Sequence record: MT884012.2 | Strand: one strand, 5' to 3' | Origin: Escherichia phage vb_EcoS_bov11C2 | DNA length: 44,700 bases | Part shown: piece after piece, positions 9,325 through 39,453 of the stretch | Numbering within the stretch: position 1 is the first letter of the stretch | Layout: each line of letters begins with the position of its first letter | Notes under the pieces: generated by a model | The model's input: the letters and a program-made list of their open reading frames with translations, nothing else | Databases searched by the model: none | Told to the model about the DNA's origin: nothing | Made by a program: the position numbers and the translations under genes

Positions 9325-9918
9325 GTGGCTGAAGTCTACTCATTCGCCGCCACTATTGCTACGTGGGTGGATAAGACGAAGGAGAACAACGATAAGGCGG
9401 TGCGGGCGTACGGGATGCAAATACTCGGACGCCTTATTGAGATCTCCCCGGTGGGCGACCCTCGCCGGTGGAAAATTAACAGGGCTTACGCGCTGGCCCG
9501 CCAGCACGCGAACAAGGTGAACGCCGCGCAGCGCCGCAAGAATGGCGGCAAACTGAAGCGCGGGCAGAAGAAGCACGCCAGCGTGCTGGTATCATTCAAA
9601 ACTAAAAACGGCAACGTCACGTTCCGCCAGCGTGGCTGGGCTGCGAAGAATTACACCGGCGGACGCTTCCGGGGAAACTGGCAGGTTACGTTCGACCGAC
9701 CGGCGGTTGGCGCTATAGACCGCGTGGACAAGGCCGGAACGGCAACATTAGCCGCTGGGCGTGAAGTGCTGGCGCATTACGATTCCAGTGAATACGGGTC
9801 GATCTGGTTTACTAACAACGTGCCATACGCGCAGCGACTTGAGTATGGCTGGAGTAAACAAGCGCCCGCGGGGATTGTTCGCGTCGTAGCGGCAGAAATT
9901 AATTCGAAGGTGAAATAA
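9325..9918 (+). CDS. neck / tail completion protein (putative)
   Basis: GTG start after RBS AAGGGG, 197 aa, between head-joining genes and the major tail gene. Confidence 0.45.
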   Translation: MAEVYSFAATIATWVDKTKENNDKAVRAYGMQILGRLIEISPVGDPRRWKINRAYALARQHANKVNAAQRRKNGGKLKRGQKKHASVLVSFKTKNGNVTFRQRGWAAKNYTGGRFRGNWQVTFDRPAVGAIDRVDKAGTATLAAGREVLAHYDSSEYGSIWFTNNVPYAQRLEYGWSKQAPAGIVRVVAAEINSKVK

Positions 9919-10340
9919 TGAGCAATACCGCAATCCGCAAAGCGCTTAACAGCGTGGTTGAAGAGTTATCGGCAAGCCTGAGCACAAGCCAGCGTCCGAT
10001 TAGGGTTAACTGGGAGAACGTGAGCGGCGACCACGCAAACGGCAGCGGTGTCTACCTGGAGCCGTACCTGCTACCGGCCCCGACCCAGTTTGTGGGCTTA
10101 CAGCAGAAGGGTCGGATCTATGCTGGCGTATATCAGGTTGCCGTGGTGTTTCCCGCAGGAACTGGAACACAGTACGCGAGCGAACTGGCGGACGCCATCG
10201 CTACGTCTGATAAGTGGCTGGCGGTGAAGATTTCCGGTGCGTCATTTCAGCTTCAGGACGCGCCATACACCAGTTCAGTGATTGAAGACGTTGATCGCGC
10301 CCGCATCGTGGTTACAGTACCCTACACCTGTTGCGCCTGA
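9918..10340 (+). CDS. tail terminator / tail completion protein (putative)
   Basis: ATG overlapping the upstream stop (TAATGA), 140 aa, immediately upstream of the major tail gene. Confidence 0.45.
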   Translation: MSNTAIRKALNSVVEELSASLSTSQRPIRVNWENVSGDHANGSGVYLEPYLLPAPTQFVGLQQKGRIYAGVYQVAVVFPAGTGTQYASELADAIATSDKWLAVKISGASFQLQDAPYTSSVIEDVDRARIVVTVPYTCCA

Positions 10341-10401
10341 TTTGGCGCTATTCTGCGCGTGCTGTATCATTAAACCGTATATCTAAACAGGAGCGTTCAT
10401 T

Positions 10402-11127
10402 ATGGGTTATCAACTTCCTAACGGGTCTAGCGTCCAGATTGGGTCCGTACTGGGTAGCGGCATCGCTGTTACGGCAGCCACCAACGCCGCCGCGTCTATC
10501 TCCGACCTTACGCAAGGTTGCGTAATTACCTGTGCGTCTTCGCATGGTCTGGTTGTTGGCGACGTTGTTATGTTCACTAAAACCCCGTGGGTCCGAGCGC
10601 TTAACCGCGCATTCATCGTGGGTAAAGTGGACACCAACGACGTTACGCTGGCGCGCTTCGACACCGAAGACGTTACCAAGTATCCTACCGGAGCGTTTGG
10701 TGTAGGCACTCCGGGCGAAGTGGTGAAAGTGTCGAGCTTTATCGACTTCCCGTTTATCACTAACGTTGCCGTGTTGGGTGGTGACCAGCAGACTACTACC
10801 TTCCAGCCGTTGCAGGTGAACACCGCAATCAGTCTTAACACCACGAAAAACCCGTTGGTACAGACTTACACCTTCACCCACGACGAAGAAGACCCGATCC
10901 GCCCAATCCTGGAAGACCTGGACGACACACAGAAAACCACTGTGATTAAGTTTACGAACCCAGCGGCAGCAAGCGGCAAAGGTGAAATTCGTATTTACCC
11001 GGCTAAGGTATCTTTCCAGAAGATTCCGTCCGCTGAAGTAAACAACGTGGAAACGGTACAATCCACTCTGACCATGCAGTCAGATATGGTTATCTACCGC
11101 AAGGATCTGGTCGAGGCATTGTCTTGA
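10402..11127 (+). CDS. major tail protein
   Basis: 241 aa, strong RBS ACAGGAG, Thr/Val/Gly-rich beta-type composition, followed by terminator and the G/GT chaperone pair. Confidence 0.7.
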   Translation: MGYQLPNGSSVQIGSVLGSGIAVTAATNAAASISDLTQGCVITCASSHGLVVGDVVMFTKTPWVRALNRAFIVGKVDTNDVTLARFDTEDVTKYPTGAFGVGTPGEVVKVSSFIDFPFITNVAVLGGDQQTTTFQPLQVNTAISLNTTKNPLVQTYTFTHDEEDPIRPILEDLDDTQKTTVIKFTNPAAASGKGEIRIYPAKVSFQKIPSAEVNNVETVQSTLTMQSDMVIYRKDLVEALS

Positions 11128-11157
11128 TTTGGTCGCTTAAATAGCGAGTGATAATAT

Positions 11158-11180
11158 GGGGCCAGCACGGCCCCTTTTTT
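11158..11180 (+). terminator. intrinsic terminator after major tail gene
   Basis: GGGGCC-agcac-GGCCCC followed by TTTTTT. Confidence 0.7.
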
Positions 11181-11196
11181 ATTGGAGAATACTACA

Positions 11197-11559
11197 ATGG
11201 CTAAAGCACCACTCTTTACACTTGACCCTAAGCCGACCTTTAAGCTGCCGATTGAGATCCCGCGCCCTGGAGAGAACGAACCCGGCAAGATGACGTTTAC
11301 CGTACGCCACCGCCCGATCGACGAATTTTCGCAAACCATGCAGGACACCGAACGAAAGCTATCGGAATATGACGACAATGACCCGGACGGCTTTAACGTT
11401 ATGGTCGAGGCCATCATGCACGTCGCGGAAGGCTGGAATCTGCCAGACGAATTTAACGCGGAGAACGTCCGCCGCCTGGTGGTCAACTACCCACGCGCGT
11501 TCGGTGTGTTCCACACGTCGTACTATCTCGAACTGATGGGATTGCGTGAAAAAAACTAA
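11197..11559 (+). CDS. tail assembly chaperone (G-like)
   Basis: ATG 11197 with RBS GGAGA; 120 aa; ends 700 nt before tape measure; contains slippery heptamer A-AAA-AAC at its 3' end. Confidence 0.7.
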   Translation: MAKAPLFTLDPKPTFKLPIEIPRPGENEPGKMTFTVRHRPIDEFSQTMQDTERKLSEYDDNDPDGFNVMVEAIMHVAEGWNLPDEFNAENVRRLVVNYPRAFGVFHTSYYLELMGLREKN

Positions 11560-11873
11560 TTGAGGCGGCGCGACGCTTTTATGGCCCGCCGCCACCCTCC
11601 GAAGATTTAGCCGCAAGTTTATGGGGCGCGGCCCCCGAAGATGTTTGTCCGCCTGTTGCGCTATGGCCTGACAACGCGAAGATAGTCGCGGTCTTCACAG
11701 ATTGCGCCACGCAATGGCGCACCGGATTTGGTGGCGCATACGGCATCGACTACGGCGTGCTGGAGTGGTTATTTAAGATGCACGGTATCGAAAACGAACA
11801 GCGCGCGTTTAAAGATATCAAGCTAATGGAACGAATCGCGCTTGATGAGATGGCGCAGCAGAACCCCGCATAA
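11197..11873 (+). CDS. tail assembly chaperone GT fusion via programmed -1 frameshift
   Basis: Slippery A AAA AAC at 11550-11556 just before the G stop; the -1 frame from 11556 is open for 105 codons to TAA 11871-11873 with no ATG of its own. Confidence 0.6.
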
Positions 11874-11877
11874 TGAA

Positions 11878-12190
11878 GCGGGACAAAACGGGATGTCCCG
11901 TTTTGTCCCACCCCACAAATGTGCATATCTAATCACTTCCATTGCATAATCTAAAAGCGGGACAATCGGGACGTCCCGTTTTGTCCCACCCCACAAATGT
12001 GCATACCTATTCGGATTTCGTGCATAAACTAAGCGGGACAAAAAGCGGGACAAACAAGGTGCGGGACAAAGCGGGACAGCACCCCCGTCCCAGCCAGTGC
12101 TGCCGCGGTTTTTAGCCGATCGGGACAGGCGGGACAAACCCCAGTCTTTCAGACTAGACGGGGGTCAATGGCCCCCCTCGTCTGAGACTG
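11878..12190. repeat. GGGACA iteron/palindrome array R1
   Basis: At least 10 GGGACA copies plus inverted copies; 30-bp perfect palindrome at 11880-11909; second imperfect palindrome 11959-11987; 71-bp unit 12021-12091 and 52-bp hairpin unit 12139-12190 each with 1 mismatch to 39549-39716. Confidence 0.85.
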
Positions 12191-12258
12191 CATAAGGTTT
12201 GTTTTAAATTCGCTGATACAATATCAATCGGCAACTGCATAAAAAAGGGGACTGCATA

Positions 12259-14901
12259 ATGGCAGATCAAGCAGCAGGCATCACGCTAAAGGTCGATGCC
12301 ACACAAGTCAGAACGGCAAATACGGCGCTGGACTCGTTCGCACAGAAGTCCGAGACTACGGAATGGAAAGCTAAGAAATTAAACGACACACTCGGCAACA
12401 CGAAAAAGGTGACGGGTGACGCCGCGGGCGGAATGGGGAAGCTGGCGAACGAATCGCAGCGCGCCGCCGATGGCATGACGAAACAAGAGCGACTTGCCAA
12501 CCGGTTAGGCATGTCGACCAAAAACCTGGGCTTTGCCTCGCGTAACGCCGCATTCCAGTTACAGGATATTGCGGTAACGCTTGAGATGGGTATGCCTGTT
12601 CACCGCGTCATGCTTCAGCAGTTACCGCAGCTAACTGGGGCGTTCGGTGGACTGGGTAACACGCTGCGTTTTGTTGCGGGCTTCCTCGGCCCAGTGGGGA
12701 TCGGCCTTGCTGCCTTGACGGCAACGTTAGGCGTAGGGGTGGCAATTACGTCCCGCGCAGAAAACCAGGTCGCAGCGCTTAACAAGACGCTGGCGCTGTC
12801 AGGTAACATTTCCGGCCTAACTGCAAACCAGATCCTGGTGCTATCCGAGAACGCCGAGCGCATGGGCGGGTCGTTCCGCAAGACGCGTGACACAATCCAG
12901 GCGCTGGCGGCGGCGGGTGTGAAAGCGGGTGGTGACTTCGGCGCACTGGCGAAGGTAGTGAATGACTTCGCGAAGGTGTCCAGCCAGCCGATCGAGGATG
13001 TGGTCGCGGCGGTGGCTAAGCTGTCTACCGACCCGGTAGGTGGCTTGCGAGCATTGGCGGATAAGTATCACGTCGTAAACGAAGCGCAGATCCAGCAGGT
13101 ACAATCCCTGGTGGATATGGGTCGTGAGACTGAAGCGGTGGCGCTGGCTAATAAAACAGCCGCGGCGTCGTTCACCACCATGACCAACGATATTAAGTCC
13201 AACATGGGAACGCTCGAGCGGTCGATGAACATCGTCACATCGGCAGCGAAATCTATGTGGGATGCAATCCTGGATGTTGGACGCGCGCAGTCCTCGAATG
13301 AGTCCGAGATGAAAGCGCGTGAGTCATTGCAGCGACTGACCACGGCTTACTATGCCGAGATGAAAGCGGTAAACGCTGCCGGTGGGGTGATGACCGAAGC
13401 GCAGAAAGCGCGTATTAACATGCTTTACAGCGAACTGGTAGCCCAGGAAAAAGTAGTGGCGTCGCTAACCCTGCGTAACCGTGCCGAGCGAGACAACGCC
13501 AGCGCCGCGGAACAATCAGCGAAGGCGAACGAGGAGGCCAACCGCACCGCCCGCGACCGCGCCGCGTTCGAGAAGGAGTACGCGACCAACGCGAAGCGGC
13601 GCGCCGACGAGATCGCCCGCCTCAATTTGCTGAATAAGCGCGGCGTGATTGATGAGAAAGAACTTGCCGAGGCGGTGAAGCAGGTCAACGAGCGTTACAA
13701 AGACCCCGCCCCGAAGAAGGCCGCCGCTGTTCGAGTCGATGCAGGGATGAAAATGCTGGAAGTAGCACGGAGCGAACTGGCACAGCTTCGTGAGTCTGGA
13801 AAGCAGATCGAAGCCAACGCATCGACGCAGACCCGCACGCAACGCGCGCAAGCGGCCTTAAACAAGCTGATCGCGGATAATGAGCAGTTAATTGCTGCGA
13901 GCAAAGAAAGAGCGCTAACGGCAGCCGAAAAGCAGCAGATGGTAGAATTCGGACGCGTGAAGGAAGTGCGCGAGCAGATCGTCGAAGAAGCCAAATTGCT
14001 GGACGCGAAAGAGAAGCAGGTCAAGGCGCACGCGCAGATCGACGCCTTCGTTAAGAACCAGAACGCCGAGCTAAAAGCCACCGCGGCGGGCTATGCGCTT
14101 TCCACTCGCGAAGCGGCTAACCTGCGCGAAGAATTGCAGCTAATTGATCGCCTTAAGCGGGTTGGCGCTAGTGATACCGATATTGATCTGGCGGTGTCTA
14201 AGCTGCGCGAAGTGCAGGAAGCACAGACAGGGGCTAACGCCTCGCTATGGGATGGCTTCAGCCGCGGGCTTAAGGATAGCGTGGATGATATGGGTAACGG
14301 ATATACGCAGATGGCGTCACTCACAAAATTCACGTTCGGCGCTATGCAGGACACGATGAACAAGTTTTTCGAGACTGGCAAGCTGAACGCAAAGGATATG
14401 GTTAAATCCATCCTTAGCGAATTAATCAAGCTGGCTACATCGCAGGCATTCAAGTCCATCGTTAGCGCTTTCGGTGGCGACGGCGGCAAAAACGGATTGT
14501 TCGGCGCTATCTTCTCGGGCCTAACTAAGAATGCGGACGGAGGAGCGTACGCAGGGGGCAATCTCGCGGCCTATTCGGGGAAAGTGGTAAGCCAGCCAAC
14601 CTTTTTCAGTTATGGCGTCCAGGCGTTCGCTAAGGGCGCAGGATTGATGGGGGAGGCTGGACCCGAGGCTATCATGCCGCTTAAGCGCGGCCCGGACGGA
14701 AAACTGGGCGTTGCCGCTGCCGGTGTAGGCGGAGGGATGATTGTAACAACCAACGTTAACATGGGGACCGGTAAGACGGATACCAGTGTTAGCGGACCAG
14801 ACCCGCGCACAGCGCAGGCGTTCGGAAAGCAAATCACCGAGTCGGTCAAGGCCGAGATCGTGAAGGCGACGAAACCGGGTGGTGTACTTTACAAACGATG
14901 A
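12259..14901 (+). CDS. tail tape measure protein
   Basis: 880 aa, Ala/Gln/Glu-rich coiled-coil core, Gly-rich hydrophobic C-terminal region, located between the GT chaperone and tail tip genes. Confidence 0.9.
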   Translation: MADQAAGITLKVDATQVRTANTALDSFAQKSETTEWKAKKLNDTLGNTKKVTGDAAGGMGKLANESQRAADGMTKQERLANRLGMSTKNLGFASRNAAFQLQDIAVTLEMGMPVHRVMLQQLPQLTGAFGGLGNTLRFVAGFLGPVGIGLAALTATLGVGVAITSRAENQVAALNKTLALSGNISGLTANQILVLSENAERMGGSFRKTRDTIQALAAAGVKAGGDFGALAKVVNDFAKVSSQPIEDVVAAVAKLSTDPVGGLRALADKYHVVNEAQIQQVQSLVDMGRETEAVALANKTAAASFTTMTNDIKSNMGTLERSMNIVTSAAKSMWDAILDVGRAQSSNESEMKARESLQRLTTAYYAEMKAVNAAGGVMTEAQKARINMLYSELVAQEKVVASLTLRNRAERDNASAAEQSAKANEEANRTARDRAAFEKEYATNAKRRADEIARLNLLNKRGVIDEKELAEAVKQVNERYKDPAPKKAAAVRVDAGMKMLEVARSELAQLRESGKQIEANASTQTRTQRAQAALNKLIADNEQLIAASKERALTAAEKQQMVEFGRVKEVREQIVEEAKLLDAKEKQVKAHAQIDAFVKNQNAELKATAAGYALSTREAANLREELQLIDRLKRVGASDTDIDLAVSKLREVQEAQTGANASLWDGFSRGLKDSVDDMGNGYTQMASLTKFTFGAMQDTMNKFFETGKLNAKDMVKSILSELIKLATSQAFKSIVSAFGGDGGKNGLFGAIFSGLTKNADGGAYAGGNLAAYSGKVVSQPTFFSYGVQAFAKGAGLMGEAGPEAIMPLKRGPDGKLGVAAAGVGGGMIVTTNVNMGTGKTDTSVSGPDPRTAQAFGKQITESVKAEIVKATKPGGVLYKR

Positions 14902-14908
14902 TAAAATG

Positions 14909-14939
14909 GCCCTCACTACAACGTGGGGGCTTTTTTTTT
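14909..14939 (+). terminator. intrinsic terminator after tape measure
   Basis: 8-bp stem (one G-U) with 6-nt loop followed by T9. Confidence 0.65.
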
Positions 14940-15539
14940 ATGTCACAAGGTACAATCATACTAGCGACGGGGCGTAGGACCGTATTAGGCACGGGAACCG
15001 CGTTCTTGAGCGAGATCGGTAAGGTCTGCGTATTTGCCCGCATCGACGGCAACGACTACGCACAAAAAATTGAGAAGTTCAACCATAACGAGTCCATCAC
15101 CCTAGTGGACCCGTGGGCCGGTCCAAATTATACCGGCGAGGCTTATGAGCTACTCGAAGCATACGACCCGAGGACCAACGAATGGCCATATTACTGGCAC
15201 ATGCAATTGCAAGGTGGCGGAGACGTGCAGTTGGCCTTCCGGTCAGAGGAATTGCAATTTGGTAACGGTTACGGTCAAAACATTGCGGATGGCCCGAACG
15301 CCGAAACGAAACAGTTCCCCATGCAATTCATCGGACTGACTACTGACAAGTGGTGCAATCCTAAACTGGTGTACAACTTCCTTCGCGGGCACTTCGTAAA
15401 GCCGTTTGTTGCCACCGCGCCAGATGGCGAAAAAGGTTTATTCGTGGTAGAGCGTTCGAGCTTGTCGTACACTGACAACGGACACCGCACGGCAACGGTA
15501 TCCGCCACCCTCAAGACCGCTATTGGATTCGTAAGATGA
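14940..15539 (+). CDS. minor tail protein (lambda M-like position)
   Basis: ATG directly after the T-run; first ORF after tape measure in a M-L-K-I-J-like series. Confidence 0.55.
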   Translation: MSQGTIILATGRRTVLGTGTAFLSEIGKVCVFARIDGNDYAQKIEKFNHNESITLVDPWAGPNYTGEAYELLEAYDPRTNEWPYYWHMQLQGGGDVQLAFRSEELQFGNGYGQNIADGPNAETKQFPMQFIGLTTDKWCNPKLVYNFLRGHFVKPFVATAPDGEKGLFVVERSSLSYTDNGHRTATVSATLKTAIGFVR

Positions 15540-16324
15540 ATAAACTTTATCGCGAGGCGACACGCTTCGACCCATCGGGCCGCGTTCGCCTGATTCACAT
15601 TGACGCGCAGGACGTGGAACCGGGCGACGGCGCGATCGGCGCGGGTCATCACTATTTTCACTATTGCTTTATTCCGCACACTGCCGAGGATATCGCCGCA
15701 GCAGGCGGAGACGAGGACAAGCTAAAGCCCAAGTCTATCTTCTTCGGCGGGCAGGAATTCGAATTTTGGCCCTTCGATCTGTCTGGCCTTAACTTCTCTA
15801 CATCAACGGCAGCAGAACCGCAGCTAACCCTCGTTGATATTGGCGGCATTATAACCCGGCTGTCGCTGAATCATGACCAGCTACTGGGCGCGAAGGTTGA
15901 GATCATTGATACGTTCGCGAAGTTCCTGGATAACGGATCGGACCCGGACCCGACGCAAAAACGTGTCCAGGAGTATTACATCGACTCACAGGTCGGGCGC
16001 AATCCGGGCAAGCAGATCACCTTCGCGCTATCCTCCCCCGCGGATATGGAGGGGCAAGTAGTACCCCGCCGCCAGATCATGAACATGTGCGAATGGGCGC
16101 TCAATGGGAAGTACGCCAGCGGGGATGGTTGCACATGGAACCTTGCACAGCCGGGCATCAAATATTACGACGAGCGCGGAAACGAAGTTATCGCGATGAA
16201 TATGGACCGATGCGGCGGCTGTTTGTCCGACTGTTATCTTCGTTTTGGGCAAGGTCTGGCGGACCCTAAAGCGGCGGTGCTGGACTTCGGCGGTTTTCCA
16301 GGGTCCAAATTAATTAAGGGGTAG
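15536..16324 (+). CDS. minor tail protein L-like
   Basis: 262 aa with C-terminal Cys cluster CGGCLSDC as in lambda gpL; ATGA overlap with the upstream gene. Confidence 0.7.
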   Translation: MNKLYREATRFDPSGRVRLIHIDAQDVEPGDGAIGAGHHYFHYCFIPHTAEDIAAAGGDEDKLKPKSIFFGGQEFEFWPFDLSGLNFSTSTAAEPQLTLVDIGGIITRLSLNHDQLLGAKVEIIDTFAKFLDNGSDPDPTQKRVQEYYIDSQVGRNPGKQITFALSSPADMEGQVVPRRQIMNMCEWALNGKYASGDGCTWNLAQPGIKYYDERGNEVIAMNMDRCGGCLSDCYLRFGQGLADPKAAVLDFGGFPGSKLIKG

Positions 16325-30383: not shown

Positions 30384-32674
30384 CACTTCCTGTACCTGTA
30401 CATGATGTCGCCTTCGGCGGCAAGTGGGAAGCCTTTCGCCCAAACAGGCAGGTCGCACATCAGCGCGCACAACTCCTCGGTTGTGTAGTCGTCAGTATCC
30501 GGCACTTCGGTTATCAGTTCATCGTGTACGGACAGTACGATCTCATATCCCGCAGCTTCAACGCCAGGCATGGACCATGCGAGGATATCGCGACACAGCG
30601 CCTGTACGATGTTTTCCGTGAGTTTGCCGCCGTAGGTGTACTGGAAGCCCCACTGGCGCGTCGTCTGATTCTCACCCTGATATTTAATGCGGGTGCTGGT
30701 GCGCTTCTTGCCGGTGTCTTCGTCAATCTCGGTCGTGACAGACAGCCCGATGCCTGGGTAGCTCATGATGCGCCCCGACGGCAACTCAATTTTCAACCAC
30801 CACCCCGCGGCGTTCGGGTCGTCGCGCTCCTCGTCGAAGGTTGGGTCGTGCTTCGCCTTCGTGCGCACAATCTTGAGCGCTTTCCTACCGTCCGGGCGAA
30901 CGTTAGCGCCCGCCCAGTATGCTTTGCCCGGATTGCGGATTGCGCACAACACCGCGTCCTCAAGCTCGGCCCAAAAGGCTACCGTCTTCGGGTGAGCCTC
31001 ACGCCACATACGTTTGATCGCGTCACAGGTAAGCCATACGTTTTTCGGCAGTATGTAGGTTGGGCGCTCATCCTTCTTGCCAGGCTTCGGCGGGCGCTTA
31101 GCTTCGTTAATGCGGGCGTACTCATAACCGCGTTTCGCCGCCGCCCAAATGTGATCCGGGAATGTACCCTTCATCACGTCCGCCATAGTGTAAAGGTCGA
31201 GGCCCAGGTTTTTAGCGAACTGCAAGAACGCCGCGACGCCGCCACCATAGCCCAGTCCCAATTCACACGCCTTTCCGATCTGGCGTAAGTCTTTGCGGTT
31301 GGCTTTGATGTAATCCGGGTCAAGGCCGAACATCTTACCGGCAGTCTCGCAGTAAATATCGCGGCCCGCCTTAAACACCATGAGCGCTGTTTTCTCGCCC
31401 GCGATCCAGGCAAGTCCACGCCCTTCCACGTTGGAGTAGTCCGCTACGACAAACTTCTTGCCCTTAGCCGGGATAATGCACCCGCGAACGGTCGAGGCTG
31501 TTAGCTTAGATATGTCATACGCCCAGTGCGCGGTCCCGCGTAACAGGGAATTGATGCCGTTGGTGAGCATGTGCGACCGGACCCAAAAAGCAACGTCGCT
31601 CTCGCCTTCGCGGCGCTTAATCTTCCCTTCGTGATCGTCGCTATACTCGCCGCGTGCCAGGTTTTGAGGCTGGAAGCCTTTACCCGCCCAGCGCAGCGTG
31701 CGCTTTGCGCCACCATACTGAAGACACCCACGGCGGCGACCGTCGGCAGACAGGCCATTAACGAGCGGATTGTACTTAGTCGATGCCGTTGATGACGCGC
31801 CGAGGCGCATTTCGATAAGCGCTTTGCCTTCGTCGGGGAAGTCCGGGTCTTCAAGCAGGTCGTTAAGTGTGGATTTCTGCGCGTTGTGGATTGTGAACGC
31901 CGGGGCGATATCACGCAGGATTGGCAGGAAGTCATTGCCTGTCAGTTTACCACCAAATCGCTCCCAGGCTTCCTCCTTCAATTCTTCCTTATGCGCCTGC
32001 ACCGCTTTGATCGCGGCGTTCGCCAGGTCAACGTCCACATAGAAGCCGCGGTCGTTGATCAACTGGTCGATAAGCAGGATTTCATCTTCCTTCGGGGTAT
32101 TACCCCAGTCCGGTATGCGCCAGTAGACCTCCCGCATCGCGATAATATCCAGCGCGGCATATCGCAGAAATTTGGCCCATTCTTCAGGGTGAGTCTCGCG
32201 AGTGTAGCGGCGTATTTTGTAGGTCTTAGGGGTAGGCTTACAGAATCGTTTGATCAGCGCCTTGCCTGCCTTATCCTTCGCGTGCTCTGCGTCAACGCCC
32301 AGCACCTGACACTGCATATCGAGGCTACCCGGCAGCGCGTGCCGAAAGGCCATAATCATGGTATCTTCGATCTGGCTTACCGGCAGGTCGATTCCCCACT
32401 TCTCACGGATAACCAGGCGGTCAAACAGGAGGCCGTTAGCCATCACGATTTTTGCTTTCTTGCGGGATACCTGACGGAGCGCCTTGCGCAGTTCACGCGG
32501 CATTGTTGGGGATTCAGTGGCATCCCATGTCTGCACGCGGCCTTCGTCGATGGCGTAGGTGCAAATCATAATCTCGGTGGTTGGGTGCTCTGCGTAGGCG
32601 TACGCCCCTACTTTCTTCAGGTCAACCCCGCTGAATGTCTCGGTGTCGAGAAACAAGCGTTCGAAGTCTTTCAT
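30383..32674 (-). CDS. DNA polymerase, family A, with 3'-5' exonuclease domain
   Basis: Exo I motif FLDTETFS; motif B RQIGKACELGLGYGGG (R-x3-K-x6-YG); motif C VHDELI; 763 aa. Confidence 0.9.
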   Translation of the reverse strand: MKDFERLFLDTETFSGVDLKKVGAYAYAEHPTTEIMICTYAIDEGRVQTWDATESPTMPRELRKALRQVSRKKAKIVMANGLLFDRLVIREKWGIDLPVSQIEDTMIMAFRHALPGSLDMQCQVLGVDAEHAKDKAGKALIKRFCKPTPKTYKIRRYTRETHPEEWAKFLRYAALDIIAMREVYWRIPDWGNTPKEDEILLIDQLINDRGFYVDVDLANAAIKAVQAHKEELKEEAWERFGGKLTGNDFLPILRDIAPAFTIHNAQKSTLNDLLEDPDFPDEGKALIEMRLGASSTASTKYNPLVNGLSADGRRRGCLQYGGAKRTLRWAGKGFQPQNLARGEYSDDHEGKIKRREGESDVAFWVRSHMLTNGINSLLRGTAHWAYDISKLTASTVRGCIIPAKGKKFVVADYSNVEGRGLAWIAGEKTALMVFKAGRDIYCETAGKMFGLDPDYIKANRKDLRQIGKACELGLGYGGGVAAFLQFAKNLGLDLYTMADVMKGTFPDHIWAAAKRGYEYARINEAKRPPKPGKKDERPTYILPKNVWLTCDAIKRMWREAHPKTVAFWAELEDAVLCAIRNPGKAYWAGANVRPDGRKALKIVRTKAKHDPTFDEERDDPNAAGWWLKIELPSGRIMSYPGIGLSVTTEIDEDTGKKRTSTRIKYQGENQTTRQWGFQYTYGGKLTENIVQALCRDILAWSMPGVEAAGYEIVLSVHDELITEVPDTDDYTTEELCALMCDLPVWAKGFPLAAEGDIMYRYRK

Positions 32675-32841
32675 TGCTTTATCCTCACTACGGCGTCAGC
32701 GCTGCCGATCATGGAGAAGATGCCGTCGGACAGGGCGATCTCTTCTCCATTGTTGCGAATCTCGGCAACTGTGAAATACTCGCCCAGCAATTTGGACCAT
32801 ACCTGCATTCCGACTTTTACTTCGCTGGCTTTAATACGCAT
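32671..32841 (-). CDS. small hypothetical protein (56 aa)
   Basis: Not in the ORF track (under 60 aa); ATG 32841, stop overlaps the polymerase ATG; fills the gap between SSB terminator and polymerase. Confidence 0.3.
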   Translation of the reverse strand: MRIKASEVKVGMQVWSKLLGEYFTVAEIRNNGEEIALSDGIFSMIGSADAVVRIKQ

Positions 32842-32856
32842 TTTTCATTGTCCTAT

Positions 32857-32880
32857 TAAAAAGCCCGCATTAAGCGGGCT
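32857..32880 (-). terminator. intrinsic terminator after SSB gene
   Basis: Minus strand AGCCCGC-loop-GCGGGCT followed by U-run. Confidence 0.6.
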
Positions 32881-32899
32881 TGAATAGTGGGCTTTGCCC

Positions 32900-33682
32900 T
32901 TAACGGCGGCGACGTTTACGTGGCGCTTCGTCTTCGTCGTCGTCCTCATCTTCGTCATCGCGTGGCTTACGACGTTTGCGAGGTTTTTCATCTTCCTCAT
33001 CGTCGTCGTCATCGCGGCGCTTGGATTTCTTGGACTTGCGCGGCTTGTCATCTTCATCATCGTCATCACGACGTTTTGACTTTTTGGACTTGCGCGGTGC
33101 TTCGTCTTCGTCGTCGTTGTCCAGGTCTTCGTCGGAACATGAAGACCCGCCACCTCCGAAGGCTTCGCCGTCTTCACGGAATCGCAGACCCAGCAAGCCA
33201 GCCCCGAGACCCTTGCCGTTGGTATTGTTCCACGCCCAGATATCAAGGGACACGTTGCAATAACAACCGGAGTAGATCTCCTGGCCTTCAATCTCGTCGC
33301 CGTCGATGGTCAGACCTTGTTCGGTCTGCTTCTCGCCGAGTGACGTTTGAATGATAGGCTGTTTGAACGATTTGGCGTTGATATACAACATGCCTTCGAA
33401 TTCTTCGGTCACTTCGTCACGCTCGTCACCGTCGCGGACTGCGCATTCCTTAGAATCCTGGGCGTAGTGGCGGTCCATCCACTTATCGGCATTCTTCTCG
33501 GATTTCAGCTTGTCGGTGAGCACTGCGCGCGCTGCCGCTTCCACTTTGTCCACCTGCGGATCTTCTTTATCCAGAAGAATCACGGCACGGTATGCCGGTT
33601 TTTGTCCATCCTGTTTAGGGGTATCACGTTCCCAGATTTTCAGGAAGCATACGCGCACATTTTTCAGGTTGACTTTAGCCAT
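32900..33682 (-). CDS. ssDNA-binding protein (T7 gp2.5-like / DUF2815-like) with mixed-charge repeat tail
   Basis: ATG 33682 with RBS GAGGAA; N-terminus MAKVNLKNVRVCF typical of this family from memory; C-terminal 90 aa of alternating PRKSKKSKRR and DDDDEDD blocks. Confidence 0.55.
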   Translation of the reverse strand: MAKVNLKNVRVCFLKIWERDTPKQDGQKPAYRAVILLDKEDPQVDKVEAAARAVLTDKLKSEKNADKWMDRHYAQDSKECAVRDGDERDEVTEEFEGMLYINAKSFKQPIIQTSLGEKQTEQGLTIDGDEIEGQEIYSGCYCNVSLDIWAWNNTNGKGLGAGLLGLRFREDGEAFGGGGSSCSDEDLDNDDEDEAPRKSKKSKRRDDDDEDDKPRKSKKSKRRDDDDDEEDEKPRKRRKPRDDEDEDDDEDEAPRKRRRR

Positions 33683-33772
33683 TTTCCAATTCCTCATTTT
33701 CACATGTATCGGGGTTATTGGAAGCCACCCCGTTCGGCTTGGTTGCCAATTTACTTGGTTGCGCCTGAGCGG

Positions 33773-34015
33773 TCAAGCATTTTCATTAAAAAGATTTCTG
33801 GTCACGTAGTTGGTCGCGTTCTCGATCCAGCTTAACGGCGGGCGGTTGATGTTCTTCTCCACCCAATCGACGGCAGCTTCGCTATAGCCGTCATCCAGCC
33901 AGCGGGTCGGATGTCGAATCATCCACGCCACCATTAACACGCCTTGCACGCAATGCAGGATAAAGCCCAGCGCGCCGAGCAAAAACATCAATAAGATTGC
34001 GAATACTTTATTCAT
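33773..34015 (-). CDS. small membrane protein
   Basis: N-terminal TM helix AILLMFLLGALGFIL; 80 aa; overlaps the exonuclease stop. Confidence 0.45.
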   Translation of the reverse strand: MNKVFAILLMFLLGALGFILHCVQGVLMVAWMIRHPTRWLDDGYSEAAVDWVEKNINRPPLSWIENATNYVTRNLFNENA

Positions 34016-35438
34016 TACTTAAGTCCTCGTCGGTAGCTTCAGACCACGCAGGGCGCGGGTCGTCGATTGGTGCTAATACCGGTTTTGCCGGTGCGCGCGT
34101 GATTTTATCACACAACTTCGCCCACACTTTCGGCTTCTCGTCCTTCAATACCTTCTCGGCATCAGTAGGGCTGAGTAATGTTTCTTTGTACATAACATCG
34201 CGCTTGATCCGGGCCTTCGTGAAGATCTCAATCACTTCGCTCTCGTCCGCCCACTTGCGGATTCCTTCCTTACCGGCAACCATCTTGAGGCCCAGCGATT
34301 CGCCATCACCCGCCATTACGGCCTTGAACACCGCGGACTCGATAGCCTTGATGTGCTGGCGCATTGCGTCAAGACCTTCATATGCCTTGCGCAGTTCCGC
34401 CGCGCTCATAGCGCCGGGGGCCGCTTCTTTCTTGCCACGCTTCGCACGTCGTGCCGCTTTGCGGGCTTCGCGGGCCATATTGCGGTCGTGATTGGCGCAT
34501 TCTTCCTCTGTCGCAATACTCACGTCGTCGCCCAGGTCTTCGTCTGTTGCCGTTGGTTGGGTCATCGTGTCGATTGCGGCCTTAGCGCGGGCGCTACACT
34601 GATCCGCAAATCGGCACCACTGGCACGCATCAACGCTCGGTCGGAAGTCGGCACGGGTGAGTCCCTTTTTGCCGCGGGCGTACGCCTCCAGGGCGGCGAT
34701 AGCACGCTTGGACGCAAACTTCGCGAATATCTCCAGGGCTTCTACCGAAATATCCCACTCCGACGCCCCGCCGCAATACGGCTGGAAGATAACCAGGCGC
34801 ACGGTCGTGATGTCGTACATGGATTGCAGCTTGCGCAGCAGGCCGAGCGCATACAGCATAAGCTGTTTGTTTTCTTTCGCCTCGACCTTATGCCGCCCCG
34901 TCTTCAGGTCGCCAACAATCAGCATGTACGTGCCGTCGGTCTTCTTCATGACCATGACCATATCGGCAGTACCGAACGTCTTAACCCGGTTGCCGTCGAT
35001 CTCGAAGCCAGAGTGTAGGACGCGGGTCAGATCGGTGCGCATCTCAAGCTGGACAAACTCCGCCACTTCGAGGAGCGGTCGCCAGTGGTCGACGTATGCG
35101 TCGCACTGTTTCACCATATCGTCGTTGACCAGTACGCCGCCTTTCGGCGCTTTCGGGTGTGCCTTTACCGGTCCCTTTCCTTCGTTCTCGACGTAGCACC
35201 CTTTGTACGTCTTCGCGGTTATCAGCTTCTCACCGGCGATAATGCGGTTTAGCACCACCTCAGATACGGTGTGCATACTCGTACCGTTAATCGCGGCTTG
35301 CCCGGATTCGTTCGGGATATCTTTTTCCACCACCAGGGCGGCTGGGCAACCCATCCATTTTTTAGCTCCGGATGGGCCGAGTAAAGAGTGTTCCGTGTTG
35401 CTACCGGATTGCGTTTTACGTTTTGGTTTAATCGTCAT
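34008..35438 (-). CDS. PD-(D/E)XK exonuclease, Cas4/RecB-like with Fe-S cysteine motif
   Basis: GDLKTGRHKVEAKENKQLMLYALG (D ... E-x-K ... Q..Y) and C-x2-C-x5-C (CQWCRFADQC) plus an N-terminal Cys; 476 aa. Confidence 0.7.
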   Translation of the reverse strand: MTIKPKRKTQSGSNTEHSLLGPSGAKKWMGCPAALVVEKDIPNESGQAAINGTSMHTVSEVVLNRIIAGEKLITAKTYKGCYVENEGKGPVKAHPKAPKGGVLVNDDMVKQCDAYVDHWRPLLEVAEFVQLEMRTDLTRVLHSGFEIDGNRVKTFGTADMVMVMKKTDGTYMLIVGDLKTGRHKVEAKENKQLMLYALGLLRKLQSMYDITTVRLVIFQPYCGGASEWDISVEALEIFAKFASKRAIAALEAYARGKKGLTRADFRPSVDACQWCRFADQCSARAKAAIDTMTQPTATDEDLGDDVSIATEEECANHDRNMAREARKAARRAKRGKKEAAPGAMSAAELRKAYEGLDAMRQHIKAIESAVFKAVMAGDGESLGLKMVAGKEGIRKWADESEVIEIFTKARIKRDVMYKETLLSPTDAEKVLKDEKPKVWAKLCDKITRAPAKPVLAPIDDPRPAWSEATDEDLSNE

Positions 35439-37188: not shown

Positions 37189-39453
37189 ATGAGCTTAATT
37201 AAATTCGCTGTAACAAAACCCGCTAAAAAAGGCGAAAAAGCCAGGGCGGAAAACTTCCAGATGACGACCGATGAGTTTTTCGAATTTATCAAAGATGCGA
37301 AAGAAATATCCTCGGTGCATATCAACAAGACGGAAGATAAAGCCGAGTATGCGCGCCGCAAGCGTAAGGCCGATGGCATCGTGGCGTATACCAGTGACGG
37401 ATTGCGTCGTAAGACCAGTGCGGTGGACCGCTCGATCCTGTTCTTTGATATTGACCGCACCGACACCCGCACCCTGCGCCGCTGCCGTAAGGCGTTCATC
37501 GACGCGGGTCTGGAACACGTATTTCACACCACCACCGGCGACCGCCACCCGCTGAAGGGCGGCACGCGTTGCGCCCGTTTCCTGGTGCTCACTGACAAGC
37601 CTGTACCGGCTGAAGACCTGGGCCGCGTACAATATGCACTATTACACCAACTGGGTCTGTCAGATGTGGACTTCGACGATTGCACGAAAGACACAAACCG
37701 CCTGATGTACCTGCCACACCAGCAGTCTGTTATTAAGTGCCACTATGGCAAGCGCGCCAATGTGCGTCGTCTACTCCGTCGGGCGGACAAGCTGGGGGTG
37801 GAAAAAGAGGAAGTACGCCGCGAGCTTACCCAGGGCGACGACGCAGTGGCAGACGGCATTCTGGACTGGTGCTTCCAGGCCGGATTCGAGGAGTTATCTT
37901 CTGGTCGTGGTTATGAAGTGCCGTGTCCTAACGAACATCTGCACAGCGGCGAAGGGTCGACGGCTATCATGGTCAAGGATGGTGAGATCCGTTTCAAGTG
38001 TATGCACACTGGCAACGAGTGTTGCTCGGAACTGAACAGACACCAGCACCTGGCGCTACGTCTTATCGGGATCCCGGACCACCTGAACGTCGAACCGCAC
38101 AACATGTCACGTAAGCAAATCGCCGCCATCCTCCCAGGACTGGACGACGAGGAAGTGGAATCATGCTATGCGCATATCGTTGATGCGGTCGGAGACGGCG
38201 ACGAGTACGGCGTATGTACCGACGCTGACCTGGATAACGAACCGGTCGCACTGTTCAGTAAGCACGACCCTATCATCGAGGGGTTGATTAACTTTAAATC
38301 GACCTGGTATATGGCTGGCGAGTCTAACATCGGTAAATCGTTCTACGTGCTGGGCCAAATGGGCGCTGTTGCCGCGGGTATTCCGTTCGGCGGTGCGAAG
38401 GTCGTCCAGTCTCATTGCTTCTATTTCGACGCGGAAGGTGGCGAAGCCTCCAACCAGCGTAAGGAAGCATTGCAGATCAAATATGAGCACGACCTGGACA
38501 AGCTGCACATTATCGATCTGCAATCACGCGGCTGGGATATCACCAGCAAGTCCGGCTTGCGTGAAGTTATCAGCTTCATCAACCGCACCGCTAACGGCGA
38601 ACCGGTTGGCCTGGTGGCGTTCGACTCACTCAACCAGACGGTTGCGTTGCGGTCCGCCGATGCCAAACCGTTCGACGAGAACAACGCCAGCGATATGGGC
38701 GAAGTGGTCAAAGCGCTGAAGGCCATCGCGGAAAATACAGGCGGCAGCGCGGGCGTCATCCACCACCCGGCGAAGGGTGCAAACGGCAGCAGATCTCCCC
38801 GTGGGTCCGGTGCGCTGCATGGTGCTGTCGATTCTGCGTTCTTCCTGGAGCAACCAGACGACAACCAGCCCGGACAACTGAACCTGTATCACGAGAAGGC
38901 ACGTAACGGCATCAAGCAAGCGCCGCGCGGCTTCGTCCTGCTCAAGTGCAAGGTGAAGGTGGATCTCCGCAAGTCCGAGGCGTTCGAGGCACACCAGTCC
39001 ACCAGCACAGGGCCGGACTTCGGCGATGTAGTTGCCGGTTGGGACGTCAAGCCAATTGCATCCACGCCACGCGACGAGACTCTTTACCTCGTACCGGTCG
39101 CCCTGGCACCGTTCGCCATCGAACAGGCGAAGGCCGCGGGCAAGGCCGCAGTTAAGGAGGAGAACGCCGCAGGACCGCGCAACGAAAAAGAGAAAGTGCT
39201 TTATGCGGCACTGGAAAAACTGATGGAAGATAACCCGGACCATACCGGATTCAGTAAATCGGCAATTGTACGCCAGGCGGGATTGGCAAAAGGCGGCACA
39301 TCGACGAAGGCAATCGACGATATGGTCGAGCGCGGCGTGCTCGGTTTTTATACAGATCCGCACACCGGGGCCATCTATGGGTCGTCAAATATCGTCATCA
39401 AAACGAATATACCCATCACGCTTTCGGCGACCGATGACGACCTGAAAGATTAA
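37189..39453 (+). CDS. primase-helicase (AEP-type primase-polymerase N-domain fused to RecA/DnaB-like ATPase)
   Basis: N-terminal hydrophobic DxD motif LFFDIDRTD; central Walker A GESNIGKS and Walker B VGLVAFDSLNQ; 754 aa. Confidence 0.7.
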   Translation: MSLIKFAVTKPAKKGEKARAENFQMTTDEFFEFIKDAKEISSVHINKTEDKAEYARRKRKADGIVAYTSDGLRRKTSAVDRSILFFDIDRTDTRTLRRCRKAFIDAGLEHVFHTTTGDRHPLKGGTRCARFLVLTDKPVPAEDLGRVQYALLHQLGLSDVDFDDCTKDTNRLMYLPHQQSVIKCHYGKRANVRRLLRRADKLGVEKEEVRRELTQGDDAVADGILDWCFQAGFEELSSGRGYEVPCPNEHLHSGEGSTAIMVKDGEIRFKCMHTGNECCSELNRHQHLALRLIGIPDHLNVEPHNMSRKQIAAILPGLDDEEVESCYAHIVDAVGDGDEYGVCTDADLDNEPVALFSKHDPIIEGLINFKSTWYMAGESNIGKSFYVLGQMGAVAAGIPFGGAKVVQSHCFYFDAEGGEASNQRKEALQIKYEHDLDKLHIIDLQSRGWDITSKSGLREVISFINRTANGEPVGLVAFDSLNQTVALRSADAKPFDENNASDMGEVVKALKAIAENTGGSAGVIHHPAKGANGSRSPRGSGALHGAVDSAFFLEQPDDNQPGQLNLYHEKARNGIKQAPRGFVLLKCKVKVDLRKSEAFEAHQSTSTGPDFGDVVAGWDVKPIASTPRDETLYLVPVALAPFAIEQAKAAGKAAVKEENAAGPRNEKEKVLYAALEKLMEDNPDHTGFSKSAIVRQAGLAKGGTSTKAIDDMVERGVLGFYTDPHTGAIYGSSNIVIKTNIPITLSATDDDLKD

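Follow-up and report, generated by a model that had tools for sequence, protein, structure and literature searches.

The stretch of DNA analysed here (the window) comprises 44,700 nucleotides (nt) of Escherichia phage vb_EcoS_bov11C2 (sequence record MT884012.2). Its minus strand carries, at positions 32900-33682, a gene of 260 codons plus a stop codon for an SSB, a protein that binds single-stranded DNA (ssDNA), as identified from the list of open reading frames (ORFs), the sequence, Pfam family PF10991, and PHROG 112. The ATG is at 33682 and the stop codon at 32900-32902, exactly the boundaries given in the original prediction. The 260-residue product is built of three consecutive parts. Residues 1-176 (33155-33682, minus strand) form, according to the AlphaFold2 (AF2) model and Foldseek, an oligonucleotide/oligosaccharide-binding (OB)-fold ssDNA-binding domain of the Enc34 ORF6/DUF2815 type, within the gp2.5 fold class. 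Residues 177-195 (33098-33154, minus strand) comprise a GGGGSSC linker and a proximal acidic motif, SDEDLDNDDEDE, which recurs in relatives and in partner proteins. Residues 196-260 (32903-33097, minus strand), delineated by composition, shuffles, and AF2, are an alternating basic/acidic repeat that ends with PRKRRRR at the C-terminus.

PF10991 (Enc34_ssDNA-bd, formerly DUF2815) matches residues 3-193 over profile positions 2-173 of 176 (E = 1.4e-31, 109.9 bits against a gathering cut-off of 26). The Pfam search at E <= 0.01 returns no family besides PF10991, so the canonical SSB family PF00436 is not among the matches. PHROG 112 (phrog_112), 'Gp2.5-like ssDNA binding and annealing protein', matches at E = 1.9e-55, and phmmer against the PDB sequences finds three solved DUF2815 proteins (4KLK, 4JG2, and 5ODJ) at ~1e-11. 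The AF2 model, built with 46 homologues, has a predicted local distance difference test (pLDDT) score above 90 for residues 1-172 and of ~50 from residue 178 to 260. Used as a Foldseek query, the model finds 4KLK, 5ODL, and 5ODJ at ~1e-12; across Enc34 ORF6/DUF2815 structures the E-values range from 1e-12 to 4e-10 and the target-normalised template-modelling scores from 0.63 to 0.75. T7 gp2.5 (1JE5_B) is matched with E = 6.3e-7 and a probability of 1.00 over 207 aligned columns. The protein does not fit a canonical bacterial SSB, as Foldseek gives E > 0.5 for E. coli SSB (1QVC) and the protein ends with RRRR instead of a DDDIPF-type tip. On the profiles and the model, the protein is almost certainly a phage replicative/recombination SSB of the Enc34 ORF6/DUF2815 family with a gp2.5-type OB fold. 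The gp2.5-like N-terminal domain of the original prediction is borne out as a fold class by PF10991, PHROG 112, and the Foldseek match to 1JE5, and the profile search shows an SSB-like domain. Judged by sequence, the family is Enc34/DUF2815, not T7 gp2.5 itself, to which the identity is 12-14%.

We compare the contact residues of the Enc34 ORF6-(dT) complex (Trp150, Tyr156, Asn154, Arg112, Tyr37, and Lys46) with their counterparts. In an alignment at 24% overall identity, Trp150 corresponds to Trp149, in an invariant column, and Asn154 corresponds to Asn153. Tyr156 corresponds to Asn155, with Trp151 adjacent, and Arg112, Tyr37, and Lys46 fall in poorly aligned loops.

GEAFGGGG (residues 172-180) is followed by SSCSDEDLDNDDEDEA and then by the PRKSKKSKRR of the first tail unit. 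The proximal acidic motif occupies residues 184-195 (33098-33133, minus strand) and has the core SDEDLDND. The tail consists of four units, DEDLDNDDEDEA-PRKSKKSKRR, DDDDEDDK-PRKSKKSKRR, DDDDDEEDEK-PRKRRKPR, and DDEDEDDDEDEA-PRKRRRR, the last of which is followed by the stop codon. Residues 196-260 present four Pro-Lys/Arg blocks with three acidic blocks between them. The alternation of basic and acidic blocks had been recognized in the original prediction, but the 'last 90 residues' in 'three tandem units' are in fact 77 residues past the GGGG linker (184-260; 84 with the linker) in four units.

The tail contains 36 D/E and 28 K/R residues, is 83% charged, and has a net charge of -8. It shows 8 charge-sign runs compared with 32.6±3.9 in 5000 composition-preserving shuffles, none of which is as low, and an approximate kappa of 0.56 compared with 0.10±0.04 in shuffles (z = 10). 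The charge striping is far beyond chance. The tail is a blocky polyampholyte derived by tandem amplification of a unit in which an acidic block is joined through (A/K)P to a Lys/Arg block, and it is predicted to be disordered. The 'long acidic C-terminal tail' of T7-type SSBs is not what is found, as the last six residues are RKRRRR and the only acidic motif is proximal; the departure concerns tail chemistry, not fold membership. Alignment with the family indicates that the repeat is appended after the proximal acidic motif, which is kept, and that the tail overall is still net acidic. The original view of a mixed tail instead of a purely acidic one is right about the mixed charges and the oligo-Arg end, but not about the proximal motif, which is retained, or the net charge.

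At the DNA level, a 54-nt (18-codon) tandem repeat underlies units 1-3 (32992-33117, unstranded), for which Tandem Repeats Finder reports 2.3 copies with 73% matches. The two copies of PRKSKKSKRR differ at 6/30 nt, every difference being synonymous, a pattern suggesting that selection acts on the peptide and not on the DNA. The repeat might instead act as DNA or RNA, as origin iterons inside the gene (as in lambda O), as a packaging or regulatory site, or as a site of programmed frameshifting. Such a role could draw on the presence of the tandem repeat, on an alternative frame that is open over the whole tail (ORF 32845-33291, minus strand), and on two database proteins (P0005 and P0008) that read this frame. 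However, identical peptides are encoded by DNA copies that match at just 73%, the charge pattern persists in distant relatives whose nucleotide sequence is unrelated, and the site shows neither an AT-rich nor a GC-skew anomaly. In addition, the frameshifted entries, rare beside an in-frame cluster of 537 members, resemble indel errors near a G-run. We regard a role at the level of DNA or RNA as highly improbable. An origin/iteron function is rejected on the synonymous-only divergence, the protein-level conservation in distant lineages, and the unremarkable composition profile.

The frameshifted entries P0005 (phage vB_EcoS-22664B1), P0008, H90, and H91 (JL1) shift near a GGGG run and continue as ...TKTKHRA...GKAHYSSPLNAGFLIGQ. 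We reject programmed frameshifting for P0005, P0008, and the truncated tblastn matches H90 and H91, which are most likely indel errors or mutants. The antisense and alternative-frame ORFs over the tail (32976-33263, plus strand; 32845-33291, minus strand; 32887-33354, plus strand) are best read as composition artefacts. Because the repeat is made almost entirely of GAY/GAR/AAR/CGN codons, the open alternative frame is most simply a by-product of composition.

A homologue search with the full-length protein returns nearly exclusively mixed-tailed proteins. We treat this search as biased, because the low-complexity tail supplies index words. A repeat search with the N-terminal domain only (phmmer against 1.84 billion cluster representatives) yields 2179 hits at E <= 1e-3, and we classify the tails of the 149 best hits that cover the domain end. 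Acidic tails account for 129/149 (87%); they are short (median 19 residues), have at most 3 K/R residues, and mostly have a hydrophobic end after the acids. Mixed tails account for 12/149 (8%). In the acidic-tail relatives, the motif D[DE]F[DE]D[LIV] is conserved immediately after the Gly linker and is followed by a distal acidic-hydrophobic tip. SDEDLDNDDEDE is the equivalent motif, of the family-wide D[DE][FL][DE]D[LI] type, and is probably the canonical docking or DNA-mimic peptide.

Mixed tails are clustered on a neighbour-joining tree of N-terminal domains, requiring 13 Fitch changes compared with ~82 in permutations. They make up two large clades, with about eight singletons outside. Most proteins of the clade that includes the bov11C2 SSB (enterobacterial siphoviruses, Dhillonvirus/Guernseyvirinae) end with RRRR or RSRR. 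The second large clade has up to nine basic blocks and a normal acidic tip (DDDVA, DDDDVV, or DDLPF). The striped architecture is fixed in Dhillonvirus, in Guernseyvirinae (Jerseyvirus, Kagunavirus, and Tsm2), and in the unrelated large clade, and it also occurs in dozens of metagenomic relatives. Across 120 mixed tails, the D+E and K+R counts are correlated (r = 0.95), the K+R/D+E ratio has a median of 0.72 (interquartile range 0.66-0.77), and the net charge is negative in 97.5%.

The striped tail departs from what is typical of the family and from all of its characterised members, yet it is fixed and heritable in large phage clades. That it is atypical had been proposed from T7-type SSBs, and this stands, both against the acidic tails of the characterised T7 gp2.5 and Enc34 ORF6 and against the 87% acidic tails of the unbiased family sample. 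The comparison of homologue C-termini also shows that the striped tail is no one-off. A literature search on polyampholyte or mixed-charge SSB tails and on DUF2815 C-termini found no earlier description of it. In one IMG/VR contig (3300045988_003101, L015), the SSB frame ends, within the last ~40 nt, with ...RRDDAVSYTHLRAHET at the contig end. This end appears to be sequencing-adaptor read-through, not phage sequence.

Closer relatives reveal how the repeat varies. We compare 17 Dhillonvirus SSBs with N-terminal domains at least 84% identical, 15 of them at least 95%. The proteins have 224-261 residues and 2, 3, or 4 basic blocks. All 15 complete tails with N-terminal domains at least 95% identical start with SDEDL(D/G)(N/D)DDE and finish with APRKRRRR, and their first basic block, PRKSKKSKRR, is nearly invariant, with A-for-S or S-for-R variants. 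Over the whole set, 16/17 variants retain the start motif, the first basic block, and the terminal APRKRRRR. The most divergent Dhillonvirus relative (L017) keeps the architecture and ends with RSRRNRR. Among Dhillonviruses the unit number changes in frame, and the indel junctions fall within the repeats. At 37-58% N-domain identity, the striped architecture persists in Serratia phage Tsm2, with three units, and in Jerseyvirus Ent1 and Kagunavirus K1ind2, with a minimal single unit, ...S(A)SVDDLEDDE(D/E)DE(T/A)PRRERRR(N)R. The single-copy unit of the Jerseyvirus and Kagunavirus SSBs reads ...VDDLEDDEDETPRRERRRNR. The simplest reading of these sequences is that the ancestor had an 'acidic motif plus oligo-Arg cap' and that the acid-base unit was amplified later. 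Oligo-Arg stands in place of the usual acidic-hydrophobic C-terminal tip.

The same variation could reflect a near-neutral low-complexity expansion, by slippage or unequal recombination, that is tolerated in a disordered tail; only the proximal motif would then matter, and the basic residues would offset excess negative charge. The repeat DNA is slippage-prone, 2-4 units occur among phages with N-terminal domains at least 95% identical, with indel junctions inside the repeats, and two fit laboratory phages, SECphi4 and SECphi18, have 3 and 4 units, respectively. Nevertheless, the pattern is kept across N-terminal domains of 37-58% identity and in the second large clade, and the repeat copies differ only synonymously. 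Strictly kept, too, are the PRKRRRR/RRRR end and the Pro wherever an acidic block meets the following basic one. The ratio of basic to acidic residues stays within narrow bounds, and mixed tails are heritable and clade-defining (13 compared with 82 Fitch changes). We consider a near-neutral expansion unlikely. The comparisons indicate that the appended polyampholyte is under protein-level constraint.

The SSB belongs to a conserved module of primase-helicase, DUF2800 nuclease, SSB, and PolA. The genome's ORFs, taken in all six frames, match the pattern [STAN]D[DE]D[LF] just four times, in the SSB, the nuclease (two), and the primase-helicase, and two of the four are extreme C-termini. The DUF2800 PD-(D/E)XK nuclease ends with ATDEDLSNE (34011-34037, minus strand; SEATDEDLSNE with the preceding residues). 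It also has an internal TDEDLGDD at residues 298-305 (34524-34547, minus strand; TATDEDLGDD), followed by the basic stretch ARKAARRAKRGKKEA. The internal peptide equates with the SDEDLGDD variant of the SSB motif in other Dhillonviruses. The 754-residue primase-helicase, annotated 'ATP-dependent helicase', ends with ATDDDLKD (39427-39450, plus strand; LSATDDDLKD). Nuclease residues ~298-345 (34400-34547, minus strand), TDEDLGDD followed by basic NMAREARKAARRAKRGKKEAAPG, are arranged like one unit of the SSB tail, acid first and then base. This stretch sits in an apparent insertion within the DUF2800 domain.

The peptide co-varies by lineage. The Tsm2 proteins have ATDDDLE, ASDVDLA, and ATYDDLE, the latter two at the C-terminus, and those of Ent1 and K1ind2 (Guernseyvirinae) have SVDDLE, (T/S)EEDL(E), and TE(G/E)DLE, again with the latter two at the C-terminus; the Guernseyvirinae pattern is (S/T)xEDL(E). 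In Enc34, the SSB, nuclease, and primase all end with D(E/D)DEV (...WDEDEV, ...DDDEV, and ...DDEDEV). The SSB and nuclease have EFDDLD in Marinobacter PS6 and D[ED]F[DA]D[IV]...DLV, reaching the C-terminus, in Bordetella BMP-1. In one mixed-tail metagenomic phage, the SSB has IDADDFEDDD and the nuclease ends with NIADEFNEED. At 79/80 IMG/VR loci with acidic-tail SSBs, the adjacent DUF2800 gene encodes a product whose last ~20 residues copy the SSB tail, as in the paired ends PDDFDDISEGADADALI and NDFDDVSDDALAADLI. Across 18 de-replicated IMG/VR lineages, within-phage tail similarity exceeds that of permuted pairings (z = 4.5 for the anchored tip; 0/20,000 permutations as high), and a permutation test on nine cultured phages gives p ≈ 0.0009 for nuclease versus SSB. 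As a general pattern, DUF2800 nucleases carry in their last ~20 residues a copy of the tail of their cognate DUF2815 SSB, with a proximal DDFxDL-type motif and a distal tip. We found no published description of this copying.

The recurrence of the peptide speaks for a docking role of the proximal motif, on a receptor common to SSB, nuclease, and primase-helicase, and is circumstantial evidence of tail contacts with the polymerase and helicase. Candidate receptors are the SSB groove and PolA, because the tail lies in the neighbour's β-sheet groove in the Enc34 crystal and the T7 gp2.5 and gp4 tails dock on gp5. The SSB repeat itself could be the receptor, with the Lys/Arg blocks and oligo-Arg tip serving as a docking platform that captures the acidic ends of nuclease and primase-helicase or an acidic host or phage protein. 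The tail would in this case be a multivalent hub, not a means of self-association or cooperativity. Both partner proteins do end in acidic tips (TDEDLSNE and TDDDLKD), the four basic blocks of the SSB are of matching length, and the charge complementarity is obvious. We down-weight such a hub, as identical tips occur where the SSB tail has no basic residues (Enc34, PS6, BMP-1, and 80 IMG/VR loci). In those lineages the tips mimic the acidic tail of the SSB, and the receptor is therefore something other than an SSB basic block. Moreover, the larger acid excess in cis beside the basic blocks (K+R/D+E of about 0.72) would compete. A docking role of the basic blocks is, in our estimation, quite improbable.

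The 6-kb region around the SSB gene is 100% identical to vb_EcoS_bov-series Escherichia phages and ~95% identical to many Dhillonvirus genomes. The window is the complete genome of a Dhillonvirus, an HK578-like siphovirus. We use the annotated genome of phage PaulFeyerabend (Bas15) as a guide to gene order. In this near-identical phage, the order is DNA helicase, small ORFs, DNA polymerase I, a 56-residue ORF, the SSB gene (labelled 'putative single-stranded DNA binding protein'), an 80-residue ORF, and the PD-(D/E)XK nuclease, after which comes the divergently transcribed ATP-dependent helicase/primase. In Jerseyvirus vB_SenS-Ent1 (L019), the PolA and second helicase of the replication module (9676-12774 and 13368-15833) are annotated as intein-containing; their Dhillonvirus orthologues in the bov11C2 genome are intein-free.

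The 56-residue ORF lies between SSB and PolA (32671-32841, minus strand), and its product has the same sequence as the 'protein of unknown function (56aa)' in both SECphi18 and SECphi6. In Table S2 of Stokar-Avihail et al., this protein has a frameshift at E21 in defence-escape mutants, listed beside PolA R171L escapers; going by the main text of that paper, the defence system is presumably Borvo. As far as the table goes, the frameshift indicates that the 56-residue ORF is dispensable and linked to polymerase sensing.

A GAGGA Shine-Dalgarno sequence, read from the sequence, lies 8 nt 5' of the ATG of the SSB gene (33691-33695, minus strand). An alternative GTG start is present upstream at 33703; we prefer the ATG, because homologues begin at the same MAKV/MGxK. 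A consensus scan gives a weak sigma-70-like promoter match upstream of the gene (33748-33776, minus strand), whose 9/12 matches are at chance expectation, not above it. Directly past the stop codon, RNA folding reveals a hairpin with a U-run, a probable intrinsic terminator (32853-32887, minus strand). Its free energy is -24.6 kcal/mol (z = -4.8), and 0/200 shuffles are equally stable; the consensus terminator scan did not list it. An A-run and a T-run border the hairpin, and intrinsic termination there is probably bidirectional, which would insulate the SSB gene from the 56-residue ORF and PolA.

The 'predicted SSB (Gp2.5 family)' of SECphi4 and SECphi18 is essentially the same protein, with an N-terminal domain about 99.5% identical. 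The tails of the two SSBs are striped in the same way, with 3 and 4 units, and the unit number is the sole substantive difference. This SSB triggers Retron-Eco8, a sensor of SSBs that is activated by co-expression, which lends indirect support to preferential ssDNA binding. The single experimental study of a near-identical protein, the SECphi4 SSB, models residues 1-186 only and does not display or analyse the tail. The Retron-Eco8 escapers considered from Table S2 carry either the OB-domain substitution T56P or a change upstream of the gene, and none of those considered maps to the tail. In one SECphi4 escaper, the mutation is intergenic, upstream of the SSB gene, and the main text speaks of such escapers as promoter mutants. 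The stable hairpin and the upstream escaper mutation are consistent with a separately tuned, highly expressed SSB gene.

Among known systems, the Enc34 ORF6 SSB (5ODJ, 5ODK, and 5ODL; Enterobacter/Hafnia phage) has the Pfam family, the fold, and, in the alignment, Trp150 and Asn154 of the DNA interface in common with the bov11C2 SSB. Its gene neighbourhood likewise contains a DUF2800 nuclease, SSB, and PolA, with a primase nearby, and its disordered tail likewise begins just past the GE(A/P)FG strand. It differs in the low overall identity and the substitution at Tyr156 given above, and in its tail, which is short and acidic (16 of the last 29 residues are D/E) and ends with ...WDEDEV, whereas the bov11C2 SSB has a 77-residue tail with four Lys/Arg blocks and an oligo-Arg end. 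The Enc34 ORF6 tail occupies the groove of a neighbouring molecule, and its deletion abolishes discrimination between ssDNA and double-stranded DNA (PMC5686142). Cernooka et al. (2017) describe a C-terminal tail that is long and acidic as characteristic of all prokaryotic and phage SSBs, and the tails of T7 gp2.5 and Enc34 ORF6 are both acidic (PMC5686142).

T7 gp2.5 (1JE5) has the same OB-fold variant, and both proteins are monomer-type phage SSBs with a disordered tail. It differs in sequence, with no family membership detectable, and in its C-terminus. The T7 gp2.5 tail is acidic with an essential C-terminal Phe, while the bov11C2 SSB ends with RRRR. The T7 tail regulates binding, dimerisation, and partner contacts (PMC10359462), and the T7 SSB and helicase-primase tails use a common docking mode on the polymerase (PMC13402713, PMC10359462, PMC5686142).

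E. coli SSB has the same layout of an OB fold, a disordered region, and a partner-binding acidic peptide. Its linker is Gly/Gln/Pro-rich and nearly uncharged. Cooperativity and phase separation of E. coli SSB are controlled by this disordered linker. The E. coli layout recurs in some mixed-tail PF10991 members, with a striped linker and then a DDDVA, DDDIPF, or DDLPF tip. E. coli SSB differs in fold family and oligomeric state, and in the Dhillonvirus clade the order is acidic peptide first, disordered repeat second. In T4 gp32, a basic N-terminal LAST motif, (Lys/Arg)3(Ser/Thr)2, confers cooperative SSB-SSB binding and an acidic C-terminal domain binds partners. In eukaryotic nuclear speckles, Arg-rich mixed-charge domains promote condensation (bioRxiv 10.1101/771592), and alternating Arg/Lys and Asp/Glu blocks show cohesive, valency-dependent self-association (bioRxiv 10.1101/771592, PMC9324279). 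T4 gp32 and the speckle domains are analogous to the striped tail in physical chemistry only, without homology.

The original suggestion that the tail alters partner binding or drives self-association is plausible. The most likely reading is that the repeat is an amplified, partly charge-neutralised appendage that would tune self-association and DNA contacts; we give this functional reading a chance approaching, and at most, even. The proximal acidic motif would do the classical job of an acidic tail, occupying the basic ssDNA groove in cis or in trans and docking replisome partners. The peptides of the SSB, nuclease, and primase-helicase would compete for one receptor, PolA or the SSB groove, in parallel to the T7 gp2.5 and gp4 tails on gp5. 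The appended stripes would leave the tail net acidic but ~70-80% neutralised. Their Lys/Arg blocks would contribute non-specific contacts to nucleic acid and pair with acidic blocks of the same or neighbouring SSB molecules. The outcome would be a tunable, salt-sensitive cooperativity or self-association on ssDNA, possibly with condensate-like clustering, and the unit number would set the valency. The whole explanation, comprising identity, anatomy, and mechanism, we hold to be right or wrong with equal probability.

Several points weigh against this proposal. All its mechanistic steps past the anatomy are inferred. Viable phages carry 1-4 units, so the constraint on valency is loose and the role may be weak or buffering. 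The acidic tips of the nuclease and primase are equal in lineages without SSB basic blocks, so these blocks are not required for the tip interaction network. The repeated acidic blocks are unlikely to be extra docking sites, because the hydrophobic residue found in the proximal motif is missing from them. In the SSB this motif is internal, whereas in the partners it is C-terminal; a receptor that recognises a free carboxylate would bind the SSB copy in another way. Among the nine cultured phages, the permutation test for the primase-helicase tip versus the SSB is marginal (p ≈ 0.04). Finally, low AF2 confidence indicates disorder of the tail without proving it.

A bolder form of the proposal is that the striped tail is a valency-tunable electrostatic scaffold, by which a monomeric gp2.5-type SSB would self-associate on ssDNA, with high cooperativity or in condensate-like replication foci, inside a tail-mimicry network with the DUF2800 exonuclease and primase-helicase. 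The enzymes that produce ssDNA would carry the SSB's own acidic peptide, hold the SSB by its DNA groove or share a single PolA site, and hand it onto nascent ssDNA. This extension is speculative, and we consider it doubtful. If it is true, the oligo-Arg that stands in place of the acidic tip in Dhillonvirus and Guernseyvirinae represents a rewiring of the tail-mimicry network.

Replisomes are organised through SSB tails, for which textbooks give the rule 'OB fold plus acidic tail'. A large clade departs from this rule at the very C-terminus yet keeps the acidic motif internally. The clade is well sampled, with hundreds of Dhillonvirus, Jerseyvirus, and Kagunavirus genomes, including phages of the BASEL collection and SECphi4. 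It also offers a tractable system of lytic E. coli K-12 phages, a soluble 260-residue protein, and natural variants with 1-4 units that constitute an allelic series. With this system it could be learned how cooperativity, discrimination between ssDNA and double-stranded DNA, and partner exchange are tuned by the charge pattern of a disordered tail. The same SSB is the sensor target of Retron-Eco8, and the role of its tail bears on the recognition of phage SSBs by defence systems. In addition, the copying of the cognate SSB tail by DUF2800 proteins provides a testable handle on the wiring of a very common phage replication/recombination module.

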